NCBI GenBank assembly: GCA_040755755.1
Contig: JBFLZW010000041.1
Location: forward strand, 2,102 to 66,101
Source of the DNA: a bacterium
Lineage (GTDB): Bacteria > SZUA-182 > DTGQ01
Reading direction: 5' to 3'
DNA length: 64,000 nucleotides
Below the pieces are notes generated by a model that did no database searches, had not been told where the DNA came from, and saw only the letters and a list, made by a program, of their open reading frames with translations. Numbering within the stretch: the first letter of the stretch is position 1; every line of letters starts with the position of its first letter. The translations under genes were made by a program, and so were the position numbers. Shown here piece by piece: positions 3,452-35,315 of this stretch.

Positions 3452-5331
3452 ATTTTCTCCCTGGTAGCTTTTTCGAGGTTGTAAATAACCTGTTCCGCTT
3501 CGGCCAGTAAGCTCTTTCGTGCCCGGCCATTACTGGATGCAGCGGCAAAGCGTGCATAATCGCATTCATCGAGGCAGTGCTGCAGCTGGGTCAATACTTC
3601 CCGCGTTACTCCAAGGGCTTGAAACTGCTCAACCATCTGTTGACTGGTGAGCCCTGCGGCCTGGACATTGAGCTTGTCAGCCGCATATTCGGTCAGAGAT
3701 TTTGAGACCGCAGCATAAAACTCCTTCTCCTCTCCTTTCTTATCGTGAAGGAGTGCCTGGCCAAGTTTTTTTCTGGCCAGCCGGTGTGCCCGCTTCAGCC
3801 GGGCGTACCGCTGATCTCCCTGGAGCTTTTGTGCCCGCCGGTCCATCACAAAACAGGCAAGGAGTACAAGAAGCGGAACCAGAAGGAAACTTAAGAATAC
3901 CTTATTGTCGAAGAAAAATAAATCTTTTTTTAAAAATTTCAGGTCCGTTTTAATATATTGGATATCTCTCCGGGTTAAGGTGACTTCCTGCTGATAAACC
4001 GGTGCCCTGTTTCCGCCGGAAGCGGGAGAGCCTGCCGTAACAGTACGCTGGTCCGGGGCCGCCGGAGCTATTGATACCAGGATAGGATCAGTCGTCAGGG
4101 TATGGTATTTTTCATCCTCCGGATTGAAAAAGGAAAAATGGAGCGATGGAATTTGCAGGTTTCCTGCATTGCGGGGAATCAGGAGAAAGTCAAAGCACTT
4201 TTCACCCTGCAGCTCATTCTGTTTAATCAGATTTTTGGTGCTCGTGGTATCATACTTCTGAAAGCCTTCCAGGGTGGAGAATTCAGGTTCCGGCAGGCTT
4301 TCGATGTAGCCGGCCCCCTTAATCCTGACATGCAGGGTAATGGGCTCGTTTTGAACACCGCTTTTTCGATCCACCTTGGCCGAAAGGGTAAACTTGCCAA
4401 CCGCTCCGCGAAAATCCGCAGGTTTTCCCTTCTCAGGCAGGGGAAGCACCTCGATCGTAATCGGCTCTGTTTTGAGCATCCGGGGGGGTGAAAAGAACCC
4501 TGCCTGATAAGACAGGGTGGCAGGTCCGATGGTGTGCTTTCCCGGACTCATGGGAAAAAGTGCCCGTTTGATTTCCTGAACCCGGTACTGCCTTCCGTCA
4601 ACAACCCTGATATCAGATGTGGCGGGTGCCTCCAGGTCCTCCACCCAGAAACCTTCCAGAGGAGCCTGCTGATAAGAGGGACTTTGCCATAAATCGATCC
4701 GCCGGTAGAAGCCAAAGGTCAGAATAATCTGCTCATTCACATAGGCTTTGGTTTTGTTGACCGTGTTGGTGATAAAAATATTCCCCCGCGCTGGCCGCTC
4801 TTCCGCATCTCCCCACGGATCGGCTGAGCGGGGTGGCAGAGGAGAAGGGGCATATGGCTGCTGAGGAGACCGGGATCGTGAAGAGTCACCTGGTGAAGCA
4901 GCCTGCGATACAGTTACCGTGATCGGCTCAGTCTGATAGGTCCTGCCTTCGTGAGACAGTTTGATGGCTCCAATGGTGAGCTTCCCGGAGGCTTCAGGCC
5001 GCAGGATATATTTTATGGTCTTTGATACGGAGACCTTTCCGTTAATCCAGGAAAAGTTTGATCCCTGGTAGGAGTTGACAACCGAAAAGCCCGGCAGATC
5101 CGGGAGCTCAGGATCGGGAAGAGAGCCGATATTTGAGCCCTCGATAACCACGGACAGGGAGAGGTGGTCATCGAGACTCAATTCGGTCTTATCAACCGAA
5201 GCCTGAATCGAAATGGATTCAGCCCGGGCTGCACCCGCCATGAGGAAGGTACAAAGGACCAGGAATATCAGCGTGGCACTATACCGCCTGGTTTTTTCAG
5301 CCGGCATGCTCCTACCAGTCATATTCGACAT
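3448..5331 (-). CDS. batD: BatD-like oxygen-tolerance protein
   Basis: 627 aa with an N-terminal signal/TM, a large periplasmic beta-rich region and a C-terminal TM plus cytoplasmic tail. It lies between batC and batE as in canonical Bat operons. Confidence 0.65.
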   Translation of the reverse strand: MSNMTGRSMPAEKTRRYSATLIFLVLCTFLMAGAARAESISIQASVDKTELSLDDHLSLSVVIEGSNIGSLPDPELPDLPGFSVVNSYQGSNFSWINGKVSVSKTIKYILRPEASGKLTIGAIKLSHEGRTYQTEPITVTVSQAASPGDSSRSRSPQQPYAPSPLPPRSADPWGDAEERPARGNIFITNTVNKTKAYVNEQIILTFGFYRRIDLWQSPSYQQAPLEGFWVEDLEAPATSDIRVVDGRQYRVQEIKRALFPMSPGKHTIGPATLSYQAGFFSPPRMLKTEPITIEVLPLPEKGKPADFRGAVGKFTLSAKVDRKSGVQNEPITLHVRIKGAGYIESLPEPEFSTLEGFQKYDTTSTKNLIKQNELQGEKCFDFLLIPRNAGNLQIPSLHFSFFNPEDEKYHTLTTDPILVSIAPAAPDQRTVTAGSPASGGNRAPVYQQEVTLTRRDIQYIKTDLKFLKKDLFFFDNKVFLSFLLVPLLVLLACFVMDRRAQKLQGDQRYARLKRAHRLARKKLGQALLHDKKGEEKEFYAAVSKSLTEYAADKLNVQAAGLTSQQMVEQFQALGVTREVLTQLQHCLDECDYARFAAASSNGRARKSLLAEAEQVIYNLEKATREKI

Positions 5332-6217
5332 CTCTTCCTCCTCCTTCTCCGTGCTGCTGCTGCTGCTGCATCAGACGGAGTTGCTCCCGGACCTTTTTTT
5401 CCCGCTCATCCAGGGATTGCAGTATCCTGAGGGCATCCTCTCTGGACATCTTCTGATCTTTCTTGTCCTGGTTCCCGGAATCCGGCTTACTCATGGCCGC
5501 CTCCTGCTGCTGCCGGTTTGGGTCCTGCTGAGCAGATTTTGCCTTTTCCTGCTCGCTGTTCTTTTGATCTTTCCGGTCCTGCTGGTTTCCCTGTTTTTGC
5601 TGGCCTTGCTTATTCTGCTGATCCTGTTTGCCCTGTTGATTCTTCCGGTCTTGCTGGCCCTGCTTGTTTTGTTGGTCCTGTGGGTTTTGCTGTTGATTCC
5701 GGGCCATCTCTTTCAGTTTTCGTTTGGCCAGTTCCAGGTTGAATTTGGCATCCTGGTCATCAGGCTCAAGGCCGAGAGATTTTTCGTACTGCTTGACAGC
5801 TTCGGGAAAATCATTCTGGCGGAATTTACAATTCCCAAGGTTATAGTGGGCTTTGGCCTGCACGGTACGGTCTTTTGACTGGGCCGCCTTGTGGTATTCT
5901 TCCGCTGCCTGCTCGAACTTCTCCTGCTTGAACAAAATATCCCCAATATTGAAATGGAGCACTTCCGATTCAGGATGGTCGAGCTGGGCATCCAGATATT
6001 CTTTTAATGCCTCCTCATACTTCCCCTGAGCATAGAGCTCATTCCCTCGTCTGGTTTTATTGATGAACGGGTTAGTCCAGGCCGTGCAGCAGGGGGCTGC
6101 CATAAAAAACAACATAACCACACAAACCCAAAAGAACAGAGGTGGAAATACCCTGCTCCCCTCTGTGTCTCTGTGTCTCTGTGGTTTCTTTTCCCCAAGG
6201 TACTGGTGATTCCTCAT
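5312..6217 (-). CDS. batC: BatC-like TPR protein with a Q/K/D-rich low-complexity C-terminal region
   Basis: TPR repeats are present (AQGKYEEALKEYLD, HYNLGNCKFRQNDFPEAVKQYEKSL), followed by a long QQNKQGQQDRKNQQ-type repetitive tract encoded by ~30-bp imperfect tandem DNA repeats. The ORF track extends it to 6340. The start at 6217 (MRNHQY) was chosen because it avoids overlap with batB. Confidence 0.55.
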   Translation of the reverse strand: MRNHQYLGEKKPQRHRDTEGSRVFPPLFFWVCVVMLFFMAAPCCTAWTNPFINKTRRGNELYAQGKYEEALKEYLDAQLDHPESEVLHFNIGDILFKQEKFEQAAEEYHKAAQSKDRTVQAKAHYNLGNCKFRQNDFPEAVKQYEKSLGLEPDDQDAKFNLELAKRKLKEMARNQQQNPQDQQNKQGQQDRKNQQGKQDQQNKQGQQKQGNQQDRKDQKNSEQEKAKSAQQDPNRQQQEAAMSKPDSGNQDKKDQKMSREDALRILQSLDEREKKVREQLRLMQQQQQHGEGGGRDVEYDW

Positions 6218-6227
6218 GGCCAGTTTC

Positions 6228-7259
6228 TTATTCAAAACGTCCCTCCCAGGTTTTTTTAACCTTGCGGTGATCCCCGAGGAAGAATTCCAGAAGTAACAGG
6301 AGAAGGGCTGGAAATAAAAAGTATACAAACCGGTCCTCATACTGGATATATTTTTTCGATTGGAGATTTTTTTTCTCCATATTGTCTATATCCTGATATA
6401 CTCTGTCGAGCTCCAGTTCGGCAGTGGCTGCATGGTAATATTCCCCGCCGGTCAGGTGGGCGATTTTTTCCAGGGTAGTCTGGTCCAGTCTGGACATGAT
6501 GATCTGTCCGTGTCGGTCCTTTTGATAGCCAAGATGTGCTCCGTTCTGATCCCTTATGGGGATAGGCTCTCCCGCTTCCGAGCCCAGGCCGATAGTATAG
6601 ATCCTGATCCCATCCTGCGCCGCTTCTTTGGCGGCCTCGAGAGGCTGACTGCTGTGATCTTCTCCATCTGTCAGCAGAATGAGTACCTTATATTTTTTTT
6701 CTTCCTGGATAAAAGCCTTCCGGGCCTGCTGAATAGCCTCGCCAATTGCGGTCCCCCGGATGGGGACCGTTTCCGTATCAATTATTCTCAACAGAATTTT
6801 CGCTGCTGCATGGTCCAGGGTCAGGGGACAATGGACCATGCTGGTCCCGGCAAAGCAGATGAGGCCGATGCGGTCTTGCGGTAATTTATCGATCAGTCTG
6901 GCAATCTCATGCTTGGCCCTCTCCAGCCGGTTCGGTTTGATGTCCTCGGCTAACATGCTCTTGGAGGTATCGAGAGCGATTAGAACGTCGATTCCCTTCC
7001 GGTGGATAGTCTGCATCCTGACTCCCCACTGCGGGCGGGCCAGAGCCAGAATGAGGAGCGATAAGGCCAGGAGCACAAGTACGATCTTGCGGGCGGGCCT
7101 TTTCAACCCGGAGGAAGAGGAGGAAAGCTTGTGCAGGAGCAGCGGATTTCCAAACCGCTGCACGGCTTTCTGCCTTCTCCCGTCCGCCCAGAGACAGAAG
7201 AGCACCAGAGCGGGAATGAGCACGAAAAGATAGAACCATTGTGGATCAGCGAATCTCAT
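6228..7259 (-). CDS. batB: BatB-like von Willebrand factor A (vWA) domain protein
   Basis: It has N-terminal TM helices and a vWA MIDAS motif (DTSKSM ... LLTDGEDHS). Confidence 0.8.
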   Translation of the reverse strand: MRFADPQWFYLFVLIPALVLFCLWADGRRQKAVQRFGNPLLLHKLSSSSSGLKRPARKIVLVLLALSLLILALARPQWGVRMQTIHRKGIDVLIALDTSKSMLAEDIKPNRLERAKHEIARLIDKLPQDRIGLICFAGTSMVHCPLTLDHAAAKILLRIIDTETVPIRGTAIGEAIQQARKAFIQEEKKYKVLILLTDGEDHSSQPLEAAKEAAQDGIRIYTIGLGSEAGEPIPIRDQNGAHLGYQKDRHGQIIMSRLDQTTLEKIAHLTGGEYYHAATAELELDRVYQDIDNMEKKNLQSKKYIQYEDRFVYFLFPALLLLLLEFFLGDHRKVKKTWEGRFE

Positions 7260-7260
7260 G

Positions 7261-8265
7261 TTACGGTATTGTCCTGAATCGGGTATTTTCGAGAATAATA
7301 CTGATAGTGAACAAAAGGAGAGCTATAGGTATAAGATACTGAAACAATTCTCTATACTCCATGTAATGCTTGACTTCTCTCTTGGTCTTTTCGAGGCGGT
7401 CGATCTGCTGATAGATTTTTTTGAGACTGTCTCTGTCTATTGCCCGGAAATACTGTCCGCCGGTAATTTTGGCTATTTCCTTCAGGGTTTTCTCATCCAT
7501 CTGAGTCAGCACCGGACGTCCGTCCGGCCCTATGATATATCTTTTGCCATAGACAGGATCATAAACCGGAATTGGCGCTCCTCCCTCCCTGCCGACTCCT
7601 ACCGTATATACTTTAATGCCGAAGGACTGGGCTATCCGGGCAGCGGTGATGGGATCGATCTCCCCCCGGTTATTCTGGCCATCGGTGAGCAAAATCACGA
7701 TCTTGCTTTTAGCCCTGGTATCTTTCAGCCGGTTTACACAATTGGCCAGTGCCATGCCGATTGCCGTTCCATCTTCCAGCATATCGAACTGAACATTTTC
7801 CAATAAGCTGAGCAGGACGCTGTAATCCGAGGTCAGAGGGCATTGAGTAATGGATTGTCCGGCAAAGACAACCATGCCGATCTGGTCCGAATCCCTGCCT
7901 CGGATGAATTCGGAAACCACCTGTTTGGCCACATGAAGCCGGTTGTTGGGTTTAAAATCTTCAGCCCGCATGGATCCTGAAGCATCGATGGTCAGCATGA
8001 CGTCAATCCCCCGGGTGGTAATGTCCCTGTTCTTTTTTCCCGCCTGCGGCCTGGCCAAAGCCAGAATAATCAATGCTGCGGCCGTTGCCTTCAGAATAAA
8101 AACCAGATGCCGGTAGCGGAGCGACCGGGAAGGCCGTATCTGCTTCAGCAGGCTGATATCCGAAAACCGAAGAGTTGCCTTTCTTCGCCTTCTGGTCAGG
8201 TACCAGAAAACCATGACCGGAATGATGAGGAGCCACCACAACTGATATCCATACATGAATCGCAT
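7261..8265 (-). CDS. batA: BatA-like vWA domain protein
   Basis: It has N-terminal TM helices and a vWA MIDAS motif (DASGSM ... LLTDGQNN). There is a 1-bp gap to batB. Confidence 0.8.
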   Translation of the reverse strand: MRFMYGYQLWWLLIIPVMVFWYLTRRRRKATLRFSDISLLKQIRPSRSLRYRHLVFILKATAAALIILALARPQAGKKNRDITTRGIDVMLTIDASGSMRAEDFKPNNRLHVAKQVVSEFIRGRDSDQIGMVVFAGQSITQCPLTSDYSVLLSLLENVQFDMLEDGTAIGMALANCVNRLKDTRAKSKIVILLTDGQNNRGEIDPITAARIAQSFGIKVYTVGVGREGGAPIPVYDPVYGKRYIIGPDGRPVLTQMDEKTLKEIAKITGGQYFRAIDRDSLKKIYQQIDRLEKTKREVKHYMEYRELFQYLIPIALLLFTISIILENTRFRTIP

Positions 8266-8266
8266 G

Positions 8267-8965
8267 TCACTTCAGCTCCACTGCCTGCTGTCCCTGCCGG
8301 ACAGGGATGTCCTCCCGTGCCTCCCGGCTGCTGCTGTCCGCAGGCCGGGTATGGTCAATTATCTCATAGGCCATCCGGTACCTGTGTTCCGTTTCCTCCA
8401 TCTGCGGGATGTACTTGGCAAACTTGACCAGATCGCATCCGCTTAAAAAATCCGAAATCAGCATCCTGTGCTGAACCTGAAGCGGCTGGTCCCGGAGATC
8501 GTGCAGCAGCTCTTCGGTTGTGGCCTCAAGAGCATTGATCTGATAGCGCCGGGCAAGGTATTGGCGGATGATCTCGGATAAGCGAAAATAGAATTCCTTG
8601 ATTTTCCCATCTTGCTTGAAATCATTCCAGAGCCTTGTTAACTCCGCCAAAGCGGCCTCGTGGGCAGGCAAGGGGGTAATCTCTTCATCCGAAACCCTGG
8701 AAACCTTCTTCTTCCAATAATGGTGGATTCCCCACCAGGCCAGAAGTAAGGCGGCTGCGACCAGCCCTCCCCAGAGCAGCGCTTTCCAATAGGGAGCCCA
8801 GTTTCTTTTCATCTCGAGAGGCGGTTTGATATCCTTGATATCCTCCGGAGCCGTTTCAGCAACCCCGGGCACATATCCGGCAGGAGCAGCCACCACAGGG
8901 TGAAAAACAGAAAAACTCATGAGTACCATCAGAAAGAGAACAATCTGAATTTTCATCATCGCCAT
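8267..8965 (-). CDS. hypothetical membrane-anchored protein (DUF4381-like) of the Bat operon
   Basis: 232 aa with a signal peptide and one TM. It sits between the DUF58 protein and BatA, where Bat operons usually carry a DUF4381 protein. Confidence 0.45.
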   Translation of the reverse strand: MAMMKIQIVLFLMVLMSFSVFHPVVAAPAGYVPGVAETAPEDIKDIKPPLEMKRNWAPYWKALLWGGLVAAALLLAWWGIHHYWKKKVSRVSDEEITPLPAHEAALAELTRLWNDFKQDGKIKEFYFRLSEIIRQYLARRYQINALEATTEELLHDLRDQPLQVQHRMLISDFLSGCDLVKFAKYIPQMEETEHRYRMAYEIIDHTRPADSSSREAREDIPVRQGQQAVELK

Positions 8966-9834
8966 CTTTTGGCCCTCATCCGGAAAAATTTATTCAATTC
9001 ATCCACATATGGACGGTCGGTTACTACCTCGATGGAGTCCAGGCTCAGGGAGCGAAAAAGCTTCTGTCTCTCTGCCCGCTGCCGGTCGCTGGCCTGAAAA
9101 AACATCTCCCGGAAAGCCCGATCGGAGGTATCGATCAGGATTGTCTCTCCGGTTTCAGCATCTTCCAGCTCAATCAATCCTGCATCCGCAAGCTGCACTT
9201 CCCGGGGATCGGCGATGGCAATGGGAATGAGATCATGCTTTTGAGCAACGATCTCAAGAGCCTTCCGGTAGTCTGAGGAAAAAAAGTCGGAAATAAGAAA
9301 AGCAACACATTTTCGCCGGCTGACCCGGTATAAAAACTCGAGGGCTGCGCTCAGGCTGGTTTGCCGGCCTTGAGGCTGGAAATACAAAAGCTCCCGGATA
9401 ACCCGCAGGACATGCTTTTTCCCCTTTTTCGGGGTGATGAACTTTTCGATCCTGTCGGTAAAGATAATGAGGCCCACCCGGTCATTGTTCTTGATCGCTG
9501 AAAAGGCCAGAAGGGCACAGATTTCAGCCGCTATTTCGCCCTTCATCTGCCGGGCAGTCCCGAACTCTCCGGAAGAGCTGGCATCTACCAGGAGCATCAC
9601 CGTAAGCTCCCGTTCTTCCCGGTACTGCTTGATATGCGGATGGCCAGTCCTGGCCGTTACGTTCCAGTCGATAGACCGGATATCATCACCCATCTGGTAC
9701 TCGCGGACTTCTGCAAAGTCGATCCCCTGGCCCTTGAAGACGCTGTGGTATCCACCGGCCAGAAGATCGTTGACCAGACGGTTGGTGTAGATTTCGATAT
9801 GCCTGATTTTCTGAATGATTTCCTTGGGGAGCAT
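8956..9834 (-). CDS. DUF58-domain protein (MoxR partner)
   Basis: 292 aa containing a ...DWNVTAR...MLLVDASSS... DUF58 signature. It is directly downstream of moxR with a 10-bp overlap. Confidence 0.8.
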   Translation of the reverse strand: MLPKEIIQKIRHIEIYTNRLVNDLLAGGYHSVFKGQGIDFAEVREYQMGDDIRSIDWNVTARTGHPHIKQYREERELTVMLLVDASSSGEFGTARQMKGEIAAEICALLAFSAIKNNDRVGLIIFTDRIEKFITPKKGKKHVLRVIRELLYFQPQGRQTSLSAALEFLYRVSRRKCVAFLISDFFSSDYRKALEIVAQKHDLIPIAIADPREVQLADAGLIELEDAETGETILIDTSDRAFREMFFQASDRQRAERQKLFRSLSLDSIEVVTDRPYVDELNKFFRMRAKRWR

Positions 9835-9857
9835 AGCCGTTTATTATGGCACTTCTC

Positions 9858-10844
<987 letters not shown>

Positions 10845-21469: not shown

Positions 21470-23833
21470 TTGAAAGGAGTCATGGTTATGAATAAAAAAG
21501 GGTTTTGGAAAGTATTAATGGTAAGTTTGTTTATGGCTACAGCTATCGGGTTGGTGGCCAGTGGGGCGATGGCTCAGAATGTGCCAACTCAAGTGATGCT
21601 CACAGATGAGTATGGACTACAGGTACCATCCAATGTGGGTGGGACGATAGTTCTGGATAACTTCCAGTATTGGAACAGCCCCCGGGATATGGGATGGGAG
21701 CCGATAGAGCCTGCATATCCAATCTGGGGTGCCGGCATTGGTTATGGCATGGTGGAAACAGTGGTGGATTTCCAGGAAGGCAGCAGGGTAATGGAAGTAT
21801 ATTGCCCTCCATCAGTCTTCATGCAAATGAATGCTCCCACTATGATGCCGTATACCATCTCCAAATTGGCTAAATACCGACCTGCTCCTAACGGCGAAGA
21901 ATTACTGGGTATCCCTGGTGCTTTCAGCAATATGACCTTTAAGATCAAAGCACCGGTCAGCGTTGAATTGTTCGATACCTTCAGGGTTATTGTCAGAGTA
22001 AGAACAATAACTGACGCTAACACCGCCGCTGCCGTTAACCTCGCCAATGGGAAAACCGCTGATATGGATACCGTTACGGCAGGAGTGCAGGATGCAGATA
22101 TTCCAATTGGCGCTACTCAGGTAGGTTGTCCAAATTGCTTCCCTGCAAATCCACTTGCATTTGGCATAGTTGATATCGAATTCACCCCCAGGGATTTCCC
22201 GGTAGGATGTACACCCGATAACGTGGCTGGAAGAATTTTAACTCCAGTTCCTGCTACAACCGCAATCACTCCAGAAAGTGCTATCTATACTAAAGGCGGA
22301 CAGGCAACTGGTGCTCAGCCGAGCCGGATTCAGGTAGCTATGGGAAGAACCTTCCAGGATGGCTCCTGGCATTTTGAGCAGGAACCTCTGGCTACTATCG
22401 TGGGTGCTGTATATGGGCAGCAGATATTTGAAATTCTCGGTGTAACCGTAAGAGGTAATGGATATCGGTTAGACGATGTAATGTTCACTGTTCCCGGCGC
22501 TGACATCTCTAACAATAATGCGCCCTACCTGTTCCGCATTGGTCCTGTGTATGGTCAGTTATTCCTCACTGGACAGAGCAGATTCATCTTTGCTGAAGAT
22601 GCTGATAACGTCTGGTTCATGACTGATGCCGCCATGTTAGCTAAAGCACAGCTTGACCCCGCCTTCGGGCAAAAACTTAACGCCATGGCAGCTTCAATAC
22701 CTGCTTTGAAAGCCAGATTGCAAGCAGCTACTGCTACACCTGACTTTCCGTTCATCGAAGACAATGCCGGAAATACCCCCGGAAATAAAAGGGCTGATGG
22801 TACAGCGGGAACCGGCTTTACCCTTAGCGAGGCCCGTTTCAGAATCGGAGGAACATCGGTGGCCGGTTTGACCCAGCCAACGATCTTCCAGTTCACCGTA
22901 GGCGATACCCTTGGTCCAATATCACAGAACCTTGCTCAGCCGGTTGATCTTGCGACTGCTCTTGGTAGTGGTAATACTGATTTACTTCCTCCTTATATTC
23001 CGCTGCTCGGAGTTCCCGCTCAGAGATGGGTAATGAATACCCCTGCAGCAGGCGCTAACAATCCGATGGTTATCATGGCAATGGCTATGGCCAATACCTA
23101 TGGCGAGTTTATGGGTGTCCGGGTTCTGAAACCTGCCACCGGGCAAGTTTTTGAGGATATGATTGTAACTTGTAGAGTTACTGATTCAATGGCATATGAT
23201 ATGGAAACCTTCCCAATCAGTGTCGTAAATTATCCGGTAACTAACCTTCCTCCAATGATTGAGCAGTTGGAAGATCAGTTCTTCCAGGTTGGATCAACCG
23301 GAGTCTATCAGATTACCGCTACTGATCCCGACATGATTGATATGGTAGGTGGCTTGACCTATAAGGCTACCTTGAACGGTCTGCCAAATTATCAGTATGG
23401 TCCCTGGATGAATCAAATCATCAGTCCGACAACTGGTACCGTTTCATTTGCCCCTCAATTCGAGGGTGCTCTGACGTGCGTAGTGACGGTTACCGATCCT
23501 CGCGGAATGCAGGCTATAGGCCATTTCACCATCTTCTGTGTCAACTCCGGAACATGGCTTAACCATCCGCCTATTGTTACGAGTATCATCGAATCTCCGC
23601 AGATTACCAAGGCCGGTCAGTTGTTCACTATCAGTGATCTGAACATTGTTGATCCGGATAATCAGCAACTGTACTACTCTTGCAATGTTGGTGCTGTTGG
23701 AAGAGGCGGCGTCTTCACCTTCCAGAGCGAGTTCCCTGGCGAGTACTTAGTCCAGATTACCGCTTACGACATCCTGGGTGGCGCTGTAACACAACAGTTC
23801 GTCCTGCAAGTAATGCCCTGGTGGTCTTTCTAA
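21470..23833 (+). CDS. large secreted protein (putative surface/S-layer or adhesin-like) with a signal peptide
   Basis: It has a strong Shine-Dalgarno sequence (GAAAGGAG) and a signal peptide (...LVASGAMAQ). It is 787 aa and Thr/Gly/Ala/Val-rich. The C-terminal half has NxPP-initiated beta-domain-like repeats. It is preceded by a 260-nt leader and followed by a strong terminator. Confidence 0.7.
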   Translation: MKGVMVMNKKGFWKVLMVSLFMATAIGLVASGAMAQNVPTQVMLTDEYGLQVPSNVGGTIVLDNFQYWNSPRDMGWEPIEPAYPIWGAGIGYGMVETVVDFQEGSRVMEVYCPPSVFMQMNAPTMMPYTISKLAKYRPAPNGEELLGIPGAFSNMTFKIKAPVSVELFDTFRVIVRVRTITDANTAAAVNLANGKTADMDTVTAGVQDADIPIGATQVGCPNCFPANPLAFGIVDIEFTPRDFPVGCTPDNVAGRILTPVPATTAITPESAIYTKGGQATGAQPSRIQVAMGRTFQDGSWHFEQEPLATIVGAVYGQQIFEILGVTVRGNGYRLDDVMFTVPGADISNNNAPYLFRIGPVYGQLFLTGQSRFIFAEDADNVWFMTDAAMLAKAQLDPAFGQKLNAMAASIPALKARLQAATATPDFPFIEDNAGNTPGNKRADGTAGTGFTLSEARFRIGGTSVAGLTQPTIFQFTVGDTLGPISQNLAQPVDLATALGSGNTDLLPPYIPLLGVPAQRWVMNTPAAGANNPMVIMAMAMANTYGEFMGVRVLKPATGQVFEDMIVTCRVTDSMAYDMETFPISVVNYPVTNLPPMIEQLEDQFFQVGSTGVYQITATDPDMIDMVGGLTYKATLNGLPNYQYGPWMNQIISPTTGTVSFAPQFEGALTCVVTVTDPRGMQAIGHFTIFCVNSGTWLNHPPIVTSIIESPQITKAGQLFTISDLNIVDPDNQQLYYSCNVGAVGRGGVFTFQSEFPGEYLVQITAYDILGGAVTQQFVLQVMPWWSF

Positions 23834-23883: not shown

Positions 23884-23927
23884 CAAGCGGGCAGCAGAAG
23901 TTCTTGCTGCCCGCTTGATTTTTTTCT
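23884..23927 (+). terminator. rho-independent terminator
   Basis: The stem CAAGCGGGCAGCAGAAGTTCTTGCTGCCCGCTTG is followed by ATTTTTTTC. Confidence 0.85.
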
Positions 23928-24158: not shown

Positions 24159-24773
24159 ATGACTGCAATTTTCCAGGGGGGAAGTGTATTTACCTATAGT
24201 ATTTTCGCTATCTCAATAATTGCTTTGGGCTTGTTTTGCGAGCGGATTAATTACCTGTACTTTCGCTTGAAATTAAATGCTGATGATACCCTTCAGAGAA
24301 TTGTGCTCCTGCTTGAAAAAACAAATATCCGGGGCGCATTGGAAGAGTGTGTCAAGATTGAAAAGCATCCTCTTGGCCGGACCCTGAAGGCAGGGCTCCT
24401 CAGATTGAATAAAAAAGACAAGGAGATCGAAATGGCCATGGAAGAGAAAATCCTGAGAGAAATCCCGATCATCAGGGCGGGAATAAACTATATGGCTCTA
24501 TTCGCAATCATATCAATTCTCCTTGGATTTTTGGGGACGATAATGGGTTTAATAACTTTCCTCAAGGGAATGGGTCAGGAAAGCGGTACGCAGATAATTA
24601 TGGGGGGAATATCTCAGGCAATGCTCAATATTGCCCTGGGCTTGATTGTAGCCATACCATGCCTGATTGGGTATTTTATTCTCAATAACCGGGGAAATTA
24701 CCTCATTGGTCAATTGAAGGAAAAATCACTGGGCCTTTTCAATGCTCTTTCTACCCTGAGGAGCAATGCCTGA
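24159..24773 (+). CDS. MotA/TolQ/ExbB-family proton channel protein (orphan, with no ExbD/TolR/MotB partner adjacent)
   Basis: It has the TolQ-like 3-TM topology and the conserved TM2/TM3 motifs (GFLGTIMGL; ALGLIVAIPCLIGY). The ATG at 24159 is preceded by GGGGAGGA. The ORF track starts earlier, at 24072. Confidence 0.8.
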   Translation: MTAIFQGGSVFTYSIFAISIIALGLFCERINYLYFRLKLNADDTLQRIVLLLEKTNIRGALEECVKIEKHPLGRTLKAGLLRLNKKDKEIEMAMEEKILREIPIIRAGINYMALFAIISILLGFLGTIMGLITFLKGMGQESGTQIIMGGISQAMLNIALGLIVAIPCLIGYFILNNRGNYLIGQLKEKSLGLFNALSTLRSNA

Positions 24774-24830
24774 TAAGAAGGTAAAAATAAGGTTTAAATA
24801 CACGTGCATCAGAACAGTGAAGAGGAAAAG

Positions 24831-27041
24831 ATGAATCTGAAGACCGAACCGGAACAAAGCATATTGACAAATGAGTTCATCCTGAATAGTCCTCTTGTAC
24901 CAGCATGGGAAGGCAAAGAACCAGGGTTGCAGCAGGAGGATGGAAAATTCCTGGAATTTTCGATTTTCGAGGGGAAGGATTTTTTCAGGAGTGAGCGGTT
25001 CTCCAAGGGAAAGATAATCGTAGGCAAAAGCGAAGAAGCAGACATCATTCTCCAGGGGCGAAATATTTTTGATATCCACGCTTTTTTTTACCGGAACGGT
25101 GATCAGGTTTTTGTATCGGATGGAGATCTTGGCAGCGGTGTTATAGTAAATGGCAGATTTGTATCCTCCCGAGCATTAAATCCTCATGATTTAGTATTCA
25201 TAGGTCCATATACGATCAAAGTTCAGCTAGGCAAAGCTTACAGTCAGCCTTCAGGAGACGATTTTCCGGATACGAATACCGTGACAGTTCAGGCTCCGGA
25301 AGAAGATGATTCCCCGGTGACGGAGATGGATACGGATACGGTTACAACAGGCGAATATAGCAAAAATGAGCCTGATGGAATGCAGGGGATCATCCGATCA
25401 CTGGAAAATGAACCTGACCAGGTTTTTCACGACTATGAGAAGCCGGATTTGACCATACCCCCTGATGTCATGAAAGAGCAGGTTTCACCCGGAATTGAAT
25501 TATCGTGGCATGAGGAGGTAGATTTTTCCCCGACGGGTGAAGATCTGCAAATTTACTCTGATGGAGAATATCCCGATCCAGAGGTTCAAAGAATTGAAGG
25601 CAATAATGTGCCGGAAGAGGATGACCTATCGGATTTTCAATTTGAGCCGTTATTTGCTGATCCTCATCCTGATTCTCAACACGAATTGCAAGAGAAGAAA
25701 AATGAGCCGGAAGACGATTCCGGGAGCGAGAGCTATTACGATGATGCTATCTTATTAACCTTTCCTAGGGCTGAGGACAATGATCAGTCCCATTCTGAGC
25801 CGGTAGTTTTGGAAGTAGAATCGCATGAAGATCCGCGAGTGCCTCACATATTGGAATTAGATGTCAGTGCACAGGCAGAGGCTGACATCCTATCGCAGAG
25901 CAAAAGCAATGAGGTTAGACTAGATGTTCCCAATTTCCCCTTTCTGGATGAGGAGGGTGAAAATAGCCATCACCCCCACCCAACCTCCCCCCTCAAGGGG
26001 GAGGGGAAAGATGGATGTCCTCAGCAAAGATGGGGAACATCTGAGAGTGGACCGGGAACAACAATCCATTCCGAAAATCAGGAAAATCCCCAGGAGGTAT
26101 TAAAGCGGATCATCGATCAAATTTCGAATTTTTCAAGTACCGCTACTGATATACCTGCTATCCCCCAAGGGGAAAGGGACCGGACATTTACTCATCAGGA
26201 AGAGAATGATAAGTATCATGAGGACACTGAGAACCATGCCCTGGAATTTTCAACCCAGAGAGTCCAGGAACCTGGAGTCAGTGCTGGATGGACAGGGATC
26301 GAGGATCGGATTCAACCTCCCGGCATAGGATCGGAAATCGACATCCCGGCTAACCAGGTGAATAGGGAGAATACGTCCCAAGGTTCAGATATCGAACAGG
26401 TAAGAACTGGAATTCGGAGCTTTTTCCCAAAGATCCTTAGTTCAATTGAAATGGTAAAAAGAAAAGTTCAGAGTTTAACTTGTGGCCACATACTTCACAA
26501 GAAACCGGATGAAGCGGGTGATGAAGATGAGGAGATGGAGATAGAGGGAAGGGAGGATTTTGATCAGCCACCGCAACTATTGGCCAGCCAGAGTGCAGGA
26601 GAAGAAGATGATGAGGAGGAGGAAATCCTCCCCAGGATCATATTTCCGATAAAAGAAAGCCTTATGCAGTATCAGCAGCAGGAAACCATTCTGGATCCTG
26701 GCGAGGTAGTGCTTGAAGTATTGAAGTGCCGGGGAGATGATGTAGTCGATATGTGCTTTTTAACCAGGAAGGAGAAATACAGCAGTTTGAATGAATTTGG
26801 CCGGTTTTATGTGGCTGAAAACAAGGATCAGGAAACCTTTTACTTTTATTTTACCGATCAATTCAAGGGCAAAATCCAGTTCAGTGACAGTTATTCTATA
26901 GACATTGAAAGATTATCCATCATTGAAGAGGTATACCGGAAAAAAGGAAGGGTTTACCGGTGTCTGCTCCCGATGAACGGAGTAGTATCCCTGTATGACG
27001 GCAGCTATGACTATTACCTGCGACTCGTCAAGCCCGCTTAA
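24831..27041 (+). CDS. FHA-domain protein with a long acidic disordered linker and an uncharacterised C-terminal domain
   Basis: An N-terminal FHA-like fold is present (IIVGKSEEADIILQGRNIFDIHAFFYRNGDQVFVSDGDLGSGVIVNGRFV...LVFIGPYTIKV). It is followed by about 400 aa of D/E-rich sequence and then a roughly 140-aa conserved-looking C-terminal domain. The ORF track start at 24804 is a GTG. The ATG at 24831 has a GAGGAAAAG Shine-Dalgarno sequence. Confidence 0.7.
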   Translation: MNLKTEPEQSILTNEFILNSPLVPAWEGKEPGLQQEDGKFLEFSIFEGKDFFRSERFSKGKIIVGKSEEADIILQGRNIFDIHAFFYRNGDQVFVSDGDLGSGVIVNGRFVSSRALNPHDLVFIGPYTIKVQLGKAYSQPSGDDFPDTNTVTVQAPEEDDSPVTEMDTDTVTTGEYSKNEPDGMQGIIRSLENEPDQVFHDYEKPDLTIPPDVMKEQVSPGIELSWHEEVDFSPTGEDLQIYSDGEYPDPEVQRIEGNNVPEEDDLSDFQFEPLFADPHPDSQHELQEKKNEPEDDSGSESYYDDAILLTFPRAEDNDQSHSEPVVLEVESHEDPRVPHILELDVSAQAEADILSQSKSNEVRLDVPNFPFLDEEGENSHHPHPTSPLKGEGKDGCPQQRWGTSESGPGTTIHSENQENPQEVLKRIIDQISNFSSTATDIPAIPQGERDRTFTHQEENDKYHEDTENHALEFSTQRVQEPGVSAGWTGIEDRIQPPGIGSEIDIPANQVNRENTSQGSDIEQVRTGIRSFFPKILSSIEMVKRKVQSLTCGHILHKKPDEAGDEDEEMEIEGREDFDQPPQLLASQSAGEEDDEEEEILPRIIFPIKESLMQYQQQETILDPGEVVLEVLKCRGDDVVDMCFLTRKEKYSSLNEFGRFYVAENKDQETFYFYFTDQFKGKIQFSDSYSIDIERLSIIEEVYRKKGRVYRCLLPMNGVVSLYDGSYDYYLRLVKPA
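25922..26043 (+). mobile_element. MITE-like repeat copy (family with AGATGTTCCCCATCT termini) embedded in-frame in the FHA-protein CDS
   Basis: It shares about 120 bp of collinear similarity with the intergenic copy at 38984..39129. The shared parts are the left end AGATGTTCCCAAT, the CATCACCCCCACCCA...CCTCAAGGGGGAGG core and the right end AAGATGGGGAACATCT. Confidence 0.55.
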
Positions 27042-27205: not shown

Positions 27206-27523
27206 ATGGCTCCAATAGAATCTGTTTTAAATGAGATAGTGCGCAGAATCGTTGAAACTGTGCATCCAAAAAGAATTATTCTTTTTGGATCTGCTGTTCG
27301 AGGAAATATGGGACCTGACAGCGATCTGGACCTGCTCATTGTTGTATCATCGGGTGAGCATCGACGTAAGACAGCGCAGAAAATTTATAGAAATCTAATC
27401 GGCGTAGGTTTTGCAACCGATATCGTTGTGGTTACAGAAGGTGATCTGGAAAATTATAAAGATTGTATCGACCTGGTAATCCAACCGGCCCTCGAAGAAG
27501 GGAGAGTGCTCTATGCTGCGTGA
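27206..27523 (+). CDS. nucleotidyltransferase (MNT-type antitoxin) of a HEPN/MNT toxin-antitoxin pair
   Basis: The Pol-beta-like NTase motif GSAVRGNMGPDSDLDLL is present in a 105-aa protein that overlaps the following HEPN gene. Confidence 0.85.
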   Translation: MAPIESVLNEIVRRIVETVHPKRIILFGSAVRGNMGPDSDLDLLIVVSSGEHRRKTAQKIYRNLIGVGFATDIVVVTEGDLENYKDCIDLVIQPALEEGRVLYAA

Positions 27524-27926
27524 TCCGGGTGATTACCGTAATCCACATGAATGGATCAAAAGAGCAAAAAGTAATCTTATCCGTGCCCGGCAGCCTAAAG
27601 TGGAGGGGATATTATGGGAGGACCTTTGTTTTGACACTCAGCAGGCTGTGGAAAAGGCATTGAAAGCAGTGCTCTTGTCGCGGGGCATACGGTTTCGGTT
27701 TGTTCATGATATTGCTGAGCTGCTGACGATCCTTGAAAAACATGCTATTCACTTGCCTGATGAGATACGGGCCGCCGCCGGGTTGACCGATTATGCAGTG
27801 GAAACCAGATATCCGGGCACGGCTGAACCGGTTACCGAGGAGGAATTCAAAGAAGCACTCAGGACTGCTGAAGCAGTAGTCGTCTGGGCTCAGAGTTTGA
27901 TTGACGGCCCATCCTGCCAGAAGTGA
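27513..27926 (+). CDS. HEPN-domain protein (toxin partner)
   Basis: 137 aa with an Rx4H motif (RFRFVH). It overlaps the NTase gene by 11 bp, which is the typical HEPN/MNT module arrangement. Confidence 0.8.
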   Translation: MLRDPGDYRNPHEWIKRAKSNLIRARQPKVEGILWEDLCFDTQQAVEKALKAVLLSRGIRFRFVHDIAELLTILEKHAIHLPDEIRAAAGLTDYAVETRYPGTAEPVTEEEFKEALRTAEAVVVWAQSLIDGPSCQK

Positions 27927-31388: not shown

Positions 31389-34300
31389 TCAGGGGTGGCA
31401 TTCCTGGCAGGACTTTTTGGACGTAGTCATAGGGCCGGTCATGTCGTGCATTCCATTTCTCTCTGGGTAGGTATATACTTTTTTGGGCAGAGAGTGGCGG
31501 TTTCGATGGCAGGCCATGCAATTTATACTCGCCTGTTTGGATACTCCCTTCTGACCATGCTGAATATCCTGGTGGCACCGGAAACATTCAATCGATTGTT
31601 TATTAACATGAACAGTGTGGATGAGAGGGGTATCTCCGGCCAGCTTGTTTTTAGAATTGATATGGCAGGTGAAGCATCGTTCTCTGGGAACCTGACCCTC
31701 TCCCTGGGTGACTTTGATGTGGCAGTCGGTGCAGAGAAGATTTTCGTTATTAGCCAGAAATTTTTCATGATTGAGCTCAACTCCTGCAAAATTTATCGAA
31801 ATACCGGGTAAAGAGTGACAGGTAATGCACCTTCCAACCCCGGTATCCTTTTCCTGTCTTCCTTTAAAGTGGCAGTTAAAGCAGATCGTTTCGGTTACCC
31901 GTACATGTTTGCCCTGGACGATTTGTGAATGGCAGGTAATGCACCCAAGATGCTTGCCGCGGGGAGAAGTTTTTAAATGCTGCTCATGGCTGAATCGGAT
32001 ACCATGCTTGAACAGCTTTTCTTCCTGGATTTCAGCCCATTGATGACATCCCTGCTGCAAACAGGCCTGATCACTGACCCTGGATTTGGGTAAAATGGAA
32101 TAGGTTCTCGCCAGAGCCCTGATGACAAGGCTGAATTTATTACGATCTTCCTGGTTCCCGGAGGTGCTGAGATGTTCATAGTGGCAGGTTACACAACTTA
32201 CCGCCTGATGAGAAGAAGTCTGCCAGGACTCGGTATAGGGGCGCATATAGTGGCAGCGGTTGCAAAATCCCGGGTAATTAATGATTTTTTGGGAATAGAG
32301 GGGAATCAAAATTCCGGGGAAAAAAGCCAGTAATCCCAGGCAGGCAAGGGCTTTCTTCCAGTGGACCTTGGAGCGGGAGGATGTATCTCCTTCCATCCAA
32401 CTTGCGGACGGGGAAAGGAACAGGAAAAGGCCCAGAAAACTGATCAGGTAGAGGGAGTAGGCCGACAGGTCGCTTATGCATCTTTGGTGGTTAACCGTGA
32501 AAAAATTGTAGGCCAATAGTCCAAGAGTAATGGTTGTCAGATACAGATAAAGTTCCCTGCCCAATTGAACTGCCAGGAACATATAAAGCACAGCCGAGAG
32601 AAGGAGAAGCTTCTGAGAAACTTCCAGGTTCCCGGAAAAGAAAGCCATGATGCAGCACGTCAAAGCCACGAGTGTAGCTACATCGAAGATTGGCTGTGTC
32701 CGGTCCCGCCCTTGTTTCCTTTTTATGAAATAGCCAATCAGACAAAGAAAGAAAGGATCAAAGAAAAAATACTGCAAGCGCATGGTGGGCAATAATCCAG
32801 GCACCTCTCGCAAGCCAAAATAGAAGCATATGGAGAAAAAGGCAGCGGCCAGAAAAGAGTGCTCATAGCAGGGCGATATCCAGCTCAAAGCCAGATAGAA
32901 AAACAGATAGACCAGAAGGGAAAGAAAAAGCCAGTATGTTTTTCCTGCACCCGGATTGATTAATGCCAGAAGAATAATCGCTGATACCCAAAGATGTCCG
33001 GCATTTTTAAACATACTTTTTCCCCACGGAAGAAACGGCCTAGCCCATAAGCTGCATCCATAGAAAAGCACGACCAGCGGGAGGGCGGCAGTAAGTATCA
33101 TATTTCCGGGAATTCCTCCTGTCAGAAGCCCTTTATACCAGACTGCGGCTAAAACGAGGCAGGCTGCGCCGATGTGCCAGACCTTGTTCGTTTGACAGGC
33201 CATAAACAGGTGAGCGGCAAATAAGATGCAACTCAGAAATAGACCGGATGGAAGGTCTTGGGAATACAGCCAGGCGAGGACCGAAATCAGGCTTAAAAGA
33301 TTCCCTGCCCAGTAAGATACTTTGCTCAATCTGGGAAACTGTTTATCGGCAAAACTATAAGCCAGATAATGGAGAAAAACACACATTGACAAGCCGTAGA
33401 GTGAGTCAGGTGAAGCATAATTCAAGGTTACCAGAAAAAATCCACTCAGAGTCAGCCATCCGAAATACCAGACTTGTGCCAGAGGATAGCCTTTCTGCTG
33501 TGATCGCATACCCAGTCCCAGCAGGAGAAAACCAGGGAGTAAAAAGAGGAGATTAGTCCCGCCGGAAGAGATAAGCTCTTTGGGAATCAAGTAATAGTAT
33601 ATGAATGCCACAACCAGCACGACGGGGAAAAGGAACTTCTGGTCCTCGGTGATCAGAAAGAATACCAGCATGGAAAAAAGATAGCCAAAACCCAGCATGC
33701 AGATGAAGTCCAGGGAATAGCTGGACAGTTGCAAAGGAATGAGGAAAGCGAGGAGGACCGTGAGAAATTGGACCTCATAGATTGTTTTGCTGAAAACAAG
33801 CCGCCCCATCTGCTGACCCAGGTGCCCAAGCCAGAAAAACAGCCAGATTAAAGGGATAGTGAGGATCAGATACCAACTGATTTCATAGACCGGGGAGTGA
33901 ATCAATAATCCCTCGAAAAAGGCGATATTCATGAAAAGGCCAAACAGGTAGGTGGAAATGCTTTGCTCCCCTTCAGTCTCAAAGTTATTCTGCCAGCCTG
34001 CAAGAAAGTACAGAAAAGCATAAGCCAGCCCGATTACCAGGTAAAAAAGGCCCACCGGAAAGCCATTCCAGGCAAAAAGAAAAAGGTAACCCAGGGCGAA
34101 AAGGTAAGAAATTACCAGGAATTTGTTCTGCTTTCGTGGCAGGTCCTTACCTGCGGTTCGAGATAACCTTGTGTGCAAAACATGCAAGCGGTAAAAATGG
34201 AAGGAGTAAAGAAATCCGATAATCATGAGCAAATTTACCCGTGAGCAATAATACCAGAAAGCGAGTGCGAGCCCGATAAATCCGATAACAAAAGCAGGAT

Positions 34301-35315
34301 GCCAGAATTTTTCCCCTTCCTCCCGCCTCTGCTGGTAAACGCCTGCATACATGAAGATCATGAATAGAACAATCAGATATAATCCGTAAGCCTGATGGGG
34401 AATGACCGGGATTTGATGAAGAAAAAAAACCAGAGAAAAGGAAAGACATCCCAGAGAGAGGTATAACCAGCCAGCCAGCCCCTGCTGTTTCAGTTTCGTC
34501 CGCCGAGTGAGCTGCCAGTAGTAAAAAAAGCTGTAAAAGCCAAGTGTACAGGCAGCAATACACGGATGCTTCTCCAGATATTCTCGGCATTGGATCAGCA
34601 CAGTGCCGATAAAAAAAAAGCCCATCAGACAGGCGGCATTATCCAGCGGATGGAGAGCCTCTTCAGCAAAGACTTTCAATCTCGTAAGCCCGAGCGATAT
34701 TCCTGACAGCAGCAGAGCGAGGGGAACAGAAAGCAGGGGCATAACCAGAGAGAAAGACGGCACCAGCCGGAACGCGGAGAGAAAGCAGGAGAAAATCAGT
34801 AACAAAGCAGCAGGATACATAAATATCCTGCCCAGTAACCGGGCAAAGGCAAAGCTCAGCACAGAAAAAAGCATGAGGATACCACTGCCGAGCAGGGGAT
34901 TGTCAATCAGAAACCCACGGCTGGCAACCAGCAGGCAAACGCCCGCCAGCAGGATCAAACCGTGGCTGAGCTGCCTCCATCCTCCCTTTTCCATCAATCC
35001 GATAGTGACTCGTTCTTCTCTACTTTCCATAACCGCCCAGACTTCACCAAAGGTACCAGGGTGCGCACATAAGACAATTTCCGCATAATTCATGCCGAAA
35101 AAGCGGGCTGAATGTTGAATTGGTGGAAGGAGCGGGGCGCAATGAGTAATTAGTTGATTTGTTGAGGCTTGCTTAATAGAAAGGCAAAAATGTGAGGAAA
35201 TGTCCTGAAAAAGGAAAAGGGAAAGGGCAGGTACCCATTTTTCATACTCCCGGCTCTCTTGAGCAAGGATAATCAAGTGGTACCAAAATTGGCAGGTGTA
35301 AGTCATACTATGCAT
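31389..35315 (-). CDS. giant polytopic membrane protein fused to a C-terminal multihaem c-type cytochrome domain
   Basis: About 950 aa of densely packed TM helices precede a roughly 330-aa C-terminal region carrying 10 CxxCH motifs (CNRCH, CVTCH, CITCH, CFNCH, CITCH, CTDCH, CFTCH, CFRCH, CMACH, CQECH). There is also one possible Cx4CH (CLQQGCH). The true start is uncertain: the longest ORF begins at 35315, and alternative ATGs lie at 35030 and 34991. None has a clear Shine-Dalgarno sequence. Confidence 0.75.
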   Translation of the reverse strand: MHSMTYTCQFWYHLIILAQESREYEKWVPALSLFLFQDISSHFCLSIKQASTNQLITHCAPLLPPIQHSARFFGMNYAEIVLCAHPGTFGEVWAVMESREERVTIGLMEKGGWRQLSHGLILLAGVCLLVASRGFLIDNPLLGSGILMLFSVLSFAFARLLGRIFMYPAALLLIFSCFLSAFRLVPSFSLVMPLLSVPLALLLSGISLGLTRLKVFAEEALHPLDNAACLMGFFFIGTVLIQCREYLEKHPCIAACTLGFYSFFYYWQLTRRTKLKQQGLAGWLYLSLGCLSFSLVFFLHQIPVIPHQAYGLYLIVLFMIFMYAGVYQQRREEGEKFWHPAFVIGFIGLALAFWYYCSRVNLLMIIGFLYSFHFYRLHVLHTRLSRTAGKDLPRKQNKFLVISYLFALGYLFLFAWNGFPVGLFYLVIGLAYAFLYFLAGWQNNFETEGEQSISTYLFGLFMNIAFFEGLLIHSPVYEISWYLILTIPLIWLFFWLGHLGQQMGRLVFSKTIYEVQFLTVLLAFLIPLQLSSYSLDFICMLGFGYLFSMLVFFLITEDQKFLFPVVLVVAFIYYYLIPKELISSGGTNLLFLLPGFLLLGLGMRSQQKGYPLAQVWYFGWLTLSGFFLVTLNYASPDSLYGLSMCVFLHYLAYSFADKQFPRLSKVSYWAGNLLSLISVLAWLYSQDLPSGLFLSCILFAAHLFMACQTNKVWHIGAACLVLAAVWYKGLLTGGIPGNMILTAALPLVVLFYGCSLWARPFLPWGKSMFKNAGHLWVSAIILLALINPGAGKTYWLFLSLLVYLFFYLALSWISPCYEHSFLAAAFFSICFYFGLREVPGLLPTMRLQYFFFDPFFLCLIGYFIKRKQGRDRTQPIFDVATLVALTCCIMAFFSGNLEVSQKLLLLSAVLYMFLAVQLGRELYLYLTTITLGLLAYNFFTVNHQRCISDLSAYSLYLISFLGLFLFLSPSASWMEGDTSSRSKVHWKKALACLGLLAFFPGILIPLYSQKIINYPGFCNRCHYMRPYTESWQTSSHQAVSCVTCHYEHLSTSGNQEDRNKFSLVIRALARTYSILPKSRVSDQACLQQGCHQWAEIQEEKLFKHGIRFSHEQHLKTSPRGKHLGCITCHSQIVQGKHVRVTETICFNCHFKGRQEKDTGVGRCITCHSLPGISINFAGVELNHEKFLANNENLLCTDCHIKVTQGEGQVPRERCFTCHINSKNKLAGDTPLIHTVHVNKQSIECFRCHQDIQHGQKGVSKQASINCMACHRNRHSLPKKVYTYPERNGMHDMTGPMTTSKKSCQECHP

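Follow-up and report, generated by a model that had tools for sequence, protein, structure and literature searches.

An ExbB-family gene beside a soluble FHA-protein gene: a probable reduced paralogue of the inner-membrane Agl/Glt module

What might an ExbB/TolQ-like membrane subunit be doing when the gene that follows it encodes a soluble FHA-domain protein and an ExbD-type partner is missing? The question is raised by two adjacent genes at 24159-27041 of a 64,000-nucleotide stretch of bacterial DNA (contig JBFLZW010000041.1), which was analysed at its full length and is called the window here. The first gene (24159-24773, + strand) encodes an ExbB-like protein of 204 amino acids (aa); the second (24831-27041, +) encodes an FHA protein of 736 aa, which we take to be derived from GltG. 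We suggest that the two genes are a reduced paralogue of the Agl/Glt gliding-motor system's inner-membrane module; the homology and identity of the two proteins we regard as very likely correct, and the complete statement, with the mechanism set out below, as probable.

The family of the 204-aa protein is readily recognised. It matches Pfam PF01618 (MotA_ExbB) with 79.4 bits (cut-off 22.9; E 2.6e-22), has three hydrophobic segments (aa 7-33, 102-139 and 145-178), and keeps the G-x-x-G-T motif of the second transmembrane helix (TM2; GFLGT127) as well as the A-I-P motif of TM3 (AIP167), which bears out the earlier note on this DNA, where a three-helix ExbB/TolQ-like protein with conserved TM2 and TM3 motifs had been proposed. 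It scores below the equivalog cut-offs for tolQ (TIGR02796, 50.8 vs 221) and exbB (TIGR02797, 31 vs 206). A protein search with this sequence returned 318 relatives, and homologues with 35-65% identity were found at the head of a conserved operon in about 60 genomes.

To define that operon, loci were collected by a pattern-based scan of one genome per species, which returned 71 loci, and the genes were mapped by tblastn; about 60 of the 71 share the order ExbB, ExbD, ExbD, a small protein (p106), an FHA protein with a transmembrane helix and a periplasmic tail, an outer-membrane protein (OMP) and two TPR proteins (TPR504 and TPR1137). The hosts are Desulfobacterota, Thermodesulfovibrionia, Bacteriovoracaceae, Myxococcota and a few Gammaproteobacteria. 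In the eight-gene operon of Desulfuromonas, for instance, the leading ExbB is 58% identical to that of the window, and its partners include proteins of 106, 830 (FHA), 504 and 1137 aa and the OMP. The 830-aa FHA protein matches GltG (NF033760) with E 2.9e-36, below the equivalog cut-off, and its C-terminus matches AgmX/PglI (NF033768) with 106 bits against a cut-off of 40; the OMP belongs to OMP_myx_plus (TIGR04565, 75 bits vs cut-off 60), and the 504-aa TPR protein is GltC-like (E 8e-26). The ExbB genes that head such full Agl/Glt-like operons are 58-65% identical to the window protein. The two B-subunits of the full operons (L001 8660-9649 and 60-70 other loci) each have an invariant residue of their own: ExbD1 has an Asn at a key transmembrane position in 68/68 sequences (motif P.MN.F.V.IPFLL), and ExbD2 an Asp in 62/62 (motif TSMMDMFTI), so that a B-subunit pair would carry only one protonatable Asp.

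The Agl/Glt core complex resembles TolQRA and ExbBD-TonB, and consists of AglR, AglQ/S, GltG and envelope TPR and OMP proteins. Its components are an ExbB-family subunit, ExbD-type subunits and an FHA protein, and the operon shared by about 60 genomes matches it; GltG, the FHA protein, is the normal partner of AglR. Luciano and co-workers described in 2011 a "core complex" in which aglR, aglQ, aglS, gltG and gltC/D/E are clustered in one region, characterised GltG/PglI as a bitopic protein whose FHA domain is cytosolic and whose periplasmic part is TonB-like, and observed an AglR-GltG interaction in a two-hybrid assay (PMC3169522). Modelling published in 2025 added a second, central FHA domain of GltG immediately before the transmembrane helix, and in the AlphaFold model of AglR5QS-GltG this domain and the helix dock on the AglR pentamer at its cytoplasmic face (PMC11761067). 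An FHA partner for an ExbB-family protein had been thought not to be a described arrangement; the published AglR-GltG pair (PMC3169522, PMC11761067), and the same-operon combination of ExbB, two ExbDs and a GltG-like protein in about 60 genomes, show that it is one.

The second gene of the window fits this family domain by domain. The National Center for Biotechnology Information (NCBI) annotation starts it at GTG 24804, giving 745 aa (P0121); we number from ATG 24831. The gap to the ExbB-like gene is accordingly 30 or 57 nt and not the 55 bp given before, a trivial discrepancy that leaves the tight spacing as it was. An N-terminal FHA domain of a non-canonical, YscD-like type (aa 41-140, 24951-25250, +) is followed by a 456-aa acidic low-complexity linker (aa 141-596, 25251-26618, +; 24% D+E, pI 4.15) and by a 140-aa C-terminal domain, which we call MID (aa 597-736, 26619-27038, +). 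Within the N-terminal domain, aa 55-139 match FHA with 27.7 bits (cut-off 20.7); the best Pfam E-value is to Yop-YscD_cpl (6.8e-8), yet this match lies 0.1 bits under that family's cut-off. The protein has no transmembrane segment, its top Kyte-Doolittle score over 19 residues being 1.02. The anatomy of FHA domain, acidic region and separate C-terminal domain thus stands as first described.

The C-terminal domain had been called unrecognised, and it does lack a Pfam match. We nonetheless find that MID, for which the predicted structure is a degenerate, FHA-like fold, is the counterpart of GltG's central FHA domain, as judged by its position, modelled fold and operon context. Against the GltG-like 830-aa protein of Desulfuromonas, tblastn gave one match over the FHA domain (E 4e-10) and one over MID (E 2e-10), and nothing beyond these two; against GltG NF033760 the window protein gave a weak match confined to the N-terminus (E 0.002). 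A hidden Markov model of MID places the end of the domain about 17-20 residues ahead of the transmembrane helix in divergent operons (E 1e-9 to 1e-27). The full-type proteins consist of an FHA domain, an acidic linker, a second FHA-like domain, a transmembrane helix and an AgmX/PglI TonB-like tail, and the closest of them (L008) runs on with "YFLRRVTQGQSPYIPDPPKIKNKFPKILLQSALFHLAVVF" into the helix, a Lys/Pro-rich linker and the TonB-like tail; the window protein stops at "YYLRLVKPA" right after MID, approximately where the helix would start. We considered a helix remnant past the stop codon and rejected it, the in-frame peptide being mildly hydrophobic and not collinear with the membrane anchors of the MAG299 and L079 proteins. 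An identity as TagH/Fha of type VI secretion was likewise discarded (TIGR03354, E 0.001, score far below the cut-off, no type VI secretion context).

What the window shares with the Agl/Glt core complex is the operon partnership of an ExbB-family gene with an FHA-protein gene, and, in that protein, the N-terminal FHA domain, variable acidic linker and central FHA-like domain of GltG. It differs in what has been lost. The full operons hold ExbD1 and ExbD2 in the position of the gap, and the window has no AglQ/AglS (ExbD-type) gene there; its GltG-like protein lacks the helix, the Pro/Lys-rich linker and the AgmX/PglI tail; the OMP, TPR and small 106-aa protein genes are missing as well. Searches of the whole 64 kb agree with this: tblastn with the operon partners, including both ExbD paralogues, detected neither an ExbD homologue nor a TonB-like AgmX/PglI tail, and Pfam scans of the 38 open reading frames (ORFs) found no ExbD (PF02472), TonB, MotB or Ser/Thr kinase family, in line with the earlier claim that no local ExbD/TolR/MotB or TonB partner is present. 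There was also no significant tblastn match in the window to the OMP (TIGR04565) or the GltC/D/E-like TPR proteins, the best being TPR504 against a TPR ORF at 5312-6340 (E 0.006). Compared with TolQ-TolR-TolA and ExbB-ExbD-TonB, the PF01618 three-helix subunit, the equivalent of TolQ T145 and the AIP motif (TolQ P187) are shared; the window differs in having no TolR/ExbD gene, a soluble partner without periplasmic domain, an Ile at the position of TolQ T178 and a Gln at that of E173.

The pair is no peculiarity of the window. When the neighbourhoods of orthologues were compared, the ExbB-FHA coupling proved to be conserved: an ExbB gene followed directly by the FHA gene, without ExbD, was found in the window, L004/L006, L082-84, L007 (in the metagenome-assembled genome, or MAG, that we call MAG299), L054/L079 and L055, and these reduced pairs form one clade in at least five species. 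In a neighbour-joining tree, the five reduced ExbBs (that of the window and four others) are one clade with long branches, placed within or next to the clade of full-operon ExbBs. The FHA proteins form a reductive series: those of L079/L054 and MAG299 (L007+L080) retain a C-terminal membrane anchor without the periplasmic part and without ExbD, and those of the window, L004 and L082-84 are soluble, the anchor being lost too. A word-index protein search with the C-terminal domain by itself found nothing, and one with the full-length FHA protein found only six proteins; a profile run exhaustively against 1.84 billion representative proteins recovered only 76 clusters with MID, about 50 of which have the complete architecture of FHA, MID, transmembrane helix and tail. 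Confident soluble FHA-MID forms are the window protein (P0121), P0122, P0123-5 and P0127.

The reduced ORFs have stayed intact across at least five species-level lineages, whose divergence reaches ~50% identity. Between the window and L004, the ratio of nonsynonymous to synonymous substitutions (dN/dS) is 0.11 for ExbB and 0.09 for the N-terminal FHA domain, figures that are approximate because dS is near saturation; dN is 0.138 for MID and 0.63 for the linker, which is thus flanked on both sides by domains with a dN of 0.13-0.14. Linker length is variable too, whole proteins of relatives spanning 425 to 745 aa. As judged from these comparisons, the reduced pair is under purifying selection and represents a maintained lineage.

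The reductive series also includes two genes, in L077 and L081, that encode a stand-alone FHA-MID protein with a short amphipathic tail at its end and no adjacent ExbB. The regions upstream of them (L077 2309-3056 and L081 2824-3516) are unusually long (~700-750 bp) and free of ORFs, with a GC content of 24-27% against 38% for the contigs; a search of these gaps for a degraded ExbB found no similarity, and they have the character of AT-rich intergenic DNA, which suggests a large regulatory region.

Does the organism of the window also own the complete machinery? The relative MAG299 has both forms, on different contigs: L007 is its reduced pair and L014 its full operon. The window ExbB is recorded in Logan run SRR25621602, and the same run contains a full-type ExbB (P0045), with 59% identity to the window protein and 88% to the full-type copy of MAG299. 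The operon around P0045 (L085) is complete: the ExbB gene is followed by two ExbD genes and by genes for a protein of 117 aa, an FHA protein of 843 aa, the OMP, a protein of 504 aa and a TPR protein of 1142 aa. The tetranucleotide correlation between L085 and the window (r=0.954) exceeds that of every other locus of 10 kb or longer and falls within the internal range of the window (0.92-0.97), and the GC contents are 0.523 and 0.504, respectively. From composition and shared sample, the window organism very probably carries a full paralogue.

On this basis we propose the following. The 204-aa protein is very likely an AglR/ExbB-like subunit, whose relatives form pentamers, and the 736-aa protein very likely the cytoplasmic half of GltG, the output protein of TolA/TonB type. 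MID may still dock on the ExbB-like oligomer at its conserved cytoplasmic face, and docking would tether the acidic linker and the non-phospho-type FHA domain at the membrane, where they could serve as an adaptor for a cytoplasmic partner. Proton-motive energy would no longer be passed across the periplasm by the pair, and its ability to run as a 5:2 proton motor has probably been lost; most likely it has an accessory, scaffolding or regulatory role alongside the complete paralogous operon.

Several observations weigh against this proposal. The contact between MID and AglR is an AlphaFold prediction made for M. xanthus (PMC11761067), and the BLAST and hidden Markov model homology of MID to GltG of Myxococcota is marginal (E 2e-4, at one locus), so that position, fold and operon context are what tie it to GltG of M. 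xanthus. The genes of L077 and L081, which stand alone, indicate that adjacency to ExbB is not obligatory. L085 was placed in the genome of the window by composition and shared sample, and the pattern-based scan found no full operon in three of the four reduced-pair reference genomes, which are incomplete MAGs. Finally, the ExbB-like protein still has its AIP motif and the equivalent of TolQ T145, and its transmembrane regions show a low dN/dS, which leaves room for some channel function or one that depends on a B-subunit.

A bolder form of our proposal would make the reduced clade the first members of the MotA/ExbB family to work without a B-subunit, as a pentameric membrane platform or gated channel capped on its cytoplasmic face by an FHA fold; an envelope-spanning motor would have been repurposed to face the cytoplasm, with a new partner brought in by the acidic linker and the N-terminal FHA domain. 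We mention this tentatively, and think it rather unlikely.

The chief competitor is a rotor assembled in trans, in which the reduced pentamer would take up ExbD1/ExbD2 from the full operon, or the TolR/ExbD of another system, remain a proton-driven 5:2 motor, and deliver its output to the cytoplasm through the soluble FHA-MID protein and not to the outer membrane. The idea that the B-subunit is simply encoded elsewhere gains from the full operon with two ExbD genes in the same sample, of matching composition, and from that in MAG299; whether the reduced ExbB would use those subunits is another matter. We compared ExbB region by region with the consensus of 51 full-type sequences. The cytoplasmic parts of the reduced ExbBs fall inside the full-type range, with identities of 0.61-0.72 for the cytoplasmic loop (lowest full-type value 0.58) and 0.64-0.76 for the C-terminal tail (0.40), but TM2 (0.44-0.67 vs 0.70), the periplasmic loop (0.17-0.33 vs 0.50) and TM3 (0.55-0.69 vs 0.72) all lie below every one of the 51 sequences. 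This pattern would fit a relaxed or changed constraint on the surfaces that face the B-subunit helices, combined with a retained cytoplasmic docking surface.

Individual pore residues tell a similar story, and here the window ExbB departs from residues that are otherwise invariant in the full Agl/Glt-like family. The polar TM2 residues N117 and T120 (window numbering), present in 66/66 full-type sequences, are I, V or C in 5/5 reduced ones and I117 and I120 in the window. By profile alignment to E. coli TolQ (8odt), I117 is equivalent to S135, I120 to P138, T127 to T145, Q153 to E173, I158 to T178 and P167 to P187. A pore Thr pair facing the Asp of the B-subunit is known from TolQ (T145/T178) and ExbB (T148/T181), and T145 and T178 of TolQ together with D23 of TolR are the proposed proton gate (PMC12965293). 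The first of these threonines is kept (T127 in the window), but at the T178 position the window has Ile158, and 4/5 reduced members have lost the Thr there, the exception being L054/L079. With invariant full-type pore residues gone, it is doubtful that the ExbD proteins of the full operon are still used. The retention of T127 and P167, the T178 equivalent of L054/L079 and a dN/dS of ~0.1 across the whole of ExbB speak for a rotor assembled in trans, and the three reference genomes in which the scan found no full operon speak against it; taken together, we consider such a rotor unlikely.

Could the pair be a relic without function, the decaying remains of an Agl/Glt-like operon that was duplicated or lost in part? 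The loss of most operon components, the long branches in the ExbB tree and the progressive truncation of the FHA protein across lineages could all be read in this way, but intact ORFs in at least five diverged lineages, a dN/dS of ~0.1 for ExbB and the N-terminal FHA domain, a MID as strongly conserved as ExbB and a linker evolving ~4.5 times faster make such a relic very improbable. The truncation falls exactly at a domain boundary, and the expression signals are in order. A GGGGAGG ribosome-binding site precedes the ATG of the ExbB-like gene; a strong intrinsic-terminator hairpin (23884-23917, +; 14-bp stem with 9 GC pairs, then ATTTTTTTCT) closes the upstream gene, for a 787-aa secreted protein, and marks the 5' boundary of the two-gene unit; and no terminator was found between the ExbB-like and FHA genes.

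There remains the suggestion of phospho-threonine signalling. In an alignment with the FHA domain of DgcB (6hc1), the N-terminal FHA domain has GK where GR is canonical, F-D-I-H in place of S-x-x-H and Ser in place of the loop Asn; the loss of the phosphopeptide-binding Arg, Ser and Asn leaves such a reading unsupported and makes the domain resemble docking FHA domains of YscD type. The FHA domains of YscD/EscD/MxiG (type III secretion) and EssC differ from it in their setting, the window having no secretion-system context and its FHA protein not being membrane-anchored itself. An orphan ExbB channel under the control of a Ser/Thr-kinase-regulated FHA protein thus deserves very little credence: an FHA match above the Pfam cut-off and a missing nearby B-subunit would suit it, but the binding residues are absent, the best E-value is to the YscD cytoplasmic type, the window has no kinase or phosphatase gene, and the protein is inherited from GltG, whose FHA domains are modelled as protein-docking modules (PMC11761067).

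We thus return to a reduced Agl/Glt paralogue as the preferred explanation. The ExbB family and the ExbB-FHA partnership were already known, and the FHA protein beside the ExbB-like gene is the normal arrangement of the Agl/Glt core family and not a new signalling module, which removes a false lead; what is new is the reduced version, and in the literature searched we found no description of a pair lacking both the B-subunit and the periplasmic part. The pair can be seen as a natural dissection: the AglR-like subunit and the central FHA-like domain of GltG, predicted to touch by the 2025 model, are the parts that were kept, and that evolution kept exactly these two provides independent comparative support for the modelled contact. 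As a natural minimal pair of AglR and cytoplasmic GltG, it offers a small, tractable system for testing this contact, and could be used to ask whether an ExbB-family oligomer has a role without an ExbD-type partner. A co-resident accessory paralogue may also help to work out what the widespread core complex does outside Myxococcus.

The remaining genes of the window are housekeeping or unrelated functions: a Bat/MoxR operon, HtrA, a sigma factor, GroEL, ComEC, a nucleotidyltransferase (NTase)/HEPN pair, FG-GAP, Usp, a multihaem cytochrome, FtsK, LolA, Def/Fmt and exopolysaccharide (EPS) genes. The 787-aa protein encoded directly upstream of the pair (21470-23833, +) has a signal peptide, a weak Big_9 match and a C-terminus ending in ...PWWSF. 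A homologue with 37% identity (E 2e-159 over 849 aa) is found directly upstream of the reduced pair in the distant L054 (7066-9354, -), on the opposite strand, and is not adjacent to the pair in L004 or L007; its position in the window and in L054 may reflect a functional link or residual synteny.

On the other side of the pair, between the FHA and FG-GAP genes, the NTase/HEPN genes (27206-27926, +; PF01909 and PF05168) overlap by 11 nt. They are absent from the corresponding position of the syntenic relative L004 and thus look like an inserted module of toxin-antitoxin type; the full-operon locus of MAG299 (L014) holds an NTase that is 64% identical to that of the window. Further downstream, a 1308-aa protein (31389-35315, -) combines a very large polytopic membrane N-terminal region with a C-terminal multihaem cytochrome region matching Cytochrome_C7, MtrC/MtrF-like and NapC/NirT-like families. 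It adjoins the pair in L004 too (71% identity), and multihaem cytochromes also flank the stand-alone FHA-MID gene of L077. The Bat/MoxR-type operon (2642-10844, -) is complete, with a MoxR AAA_3 ATPase, DUF58, DUF4381, two BatA/VWA proteins, a TPR protein, BatD and a TPR-SH3 protein.

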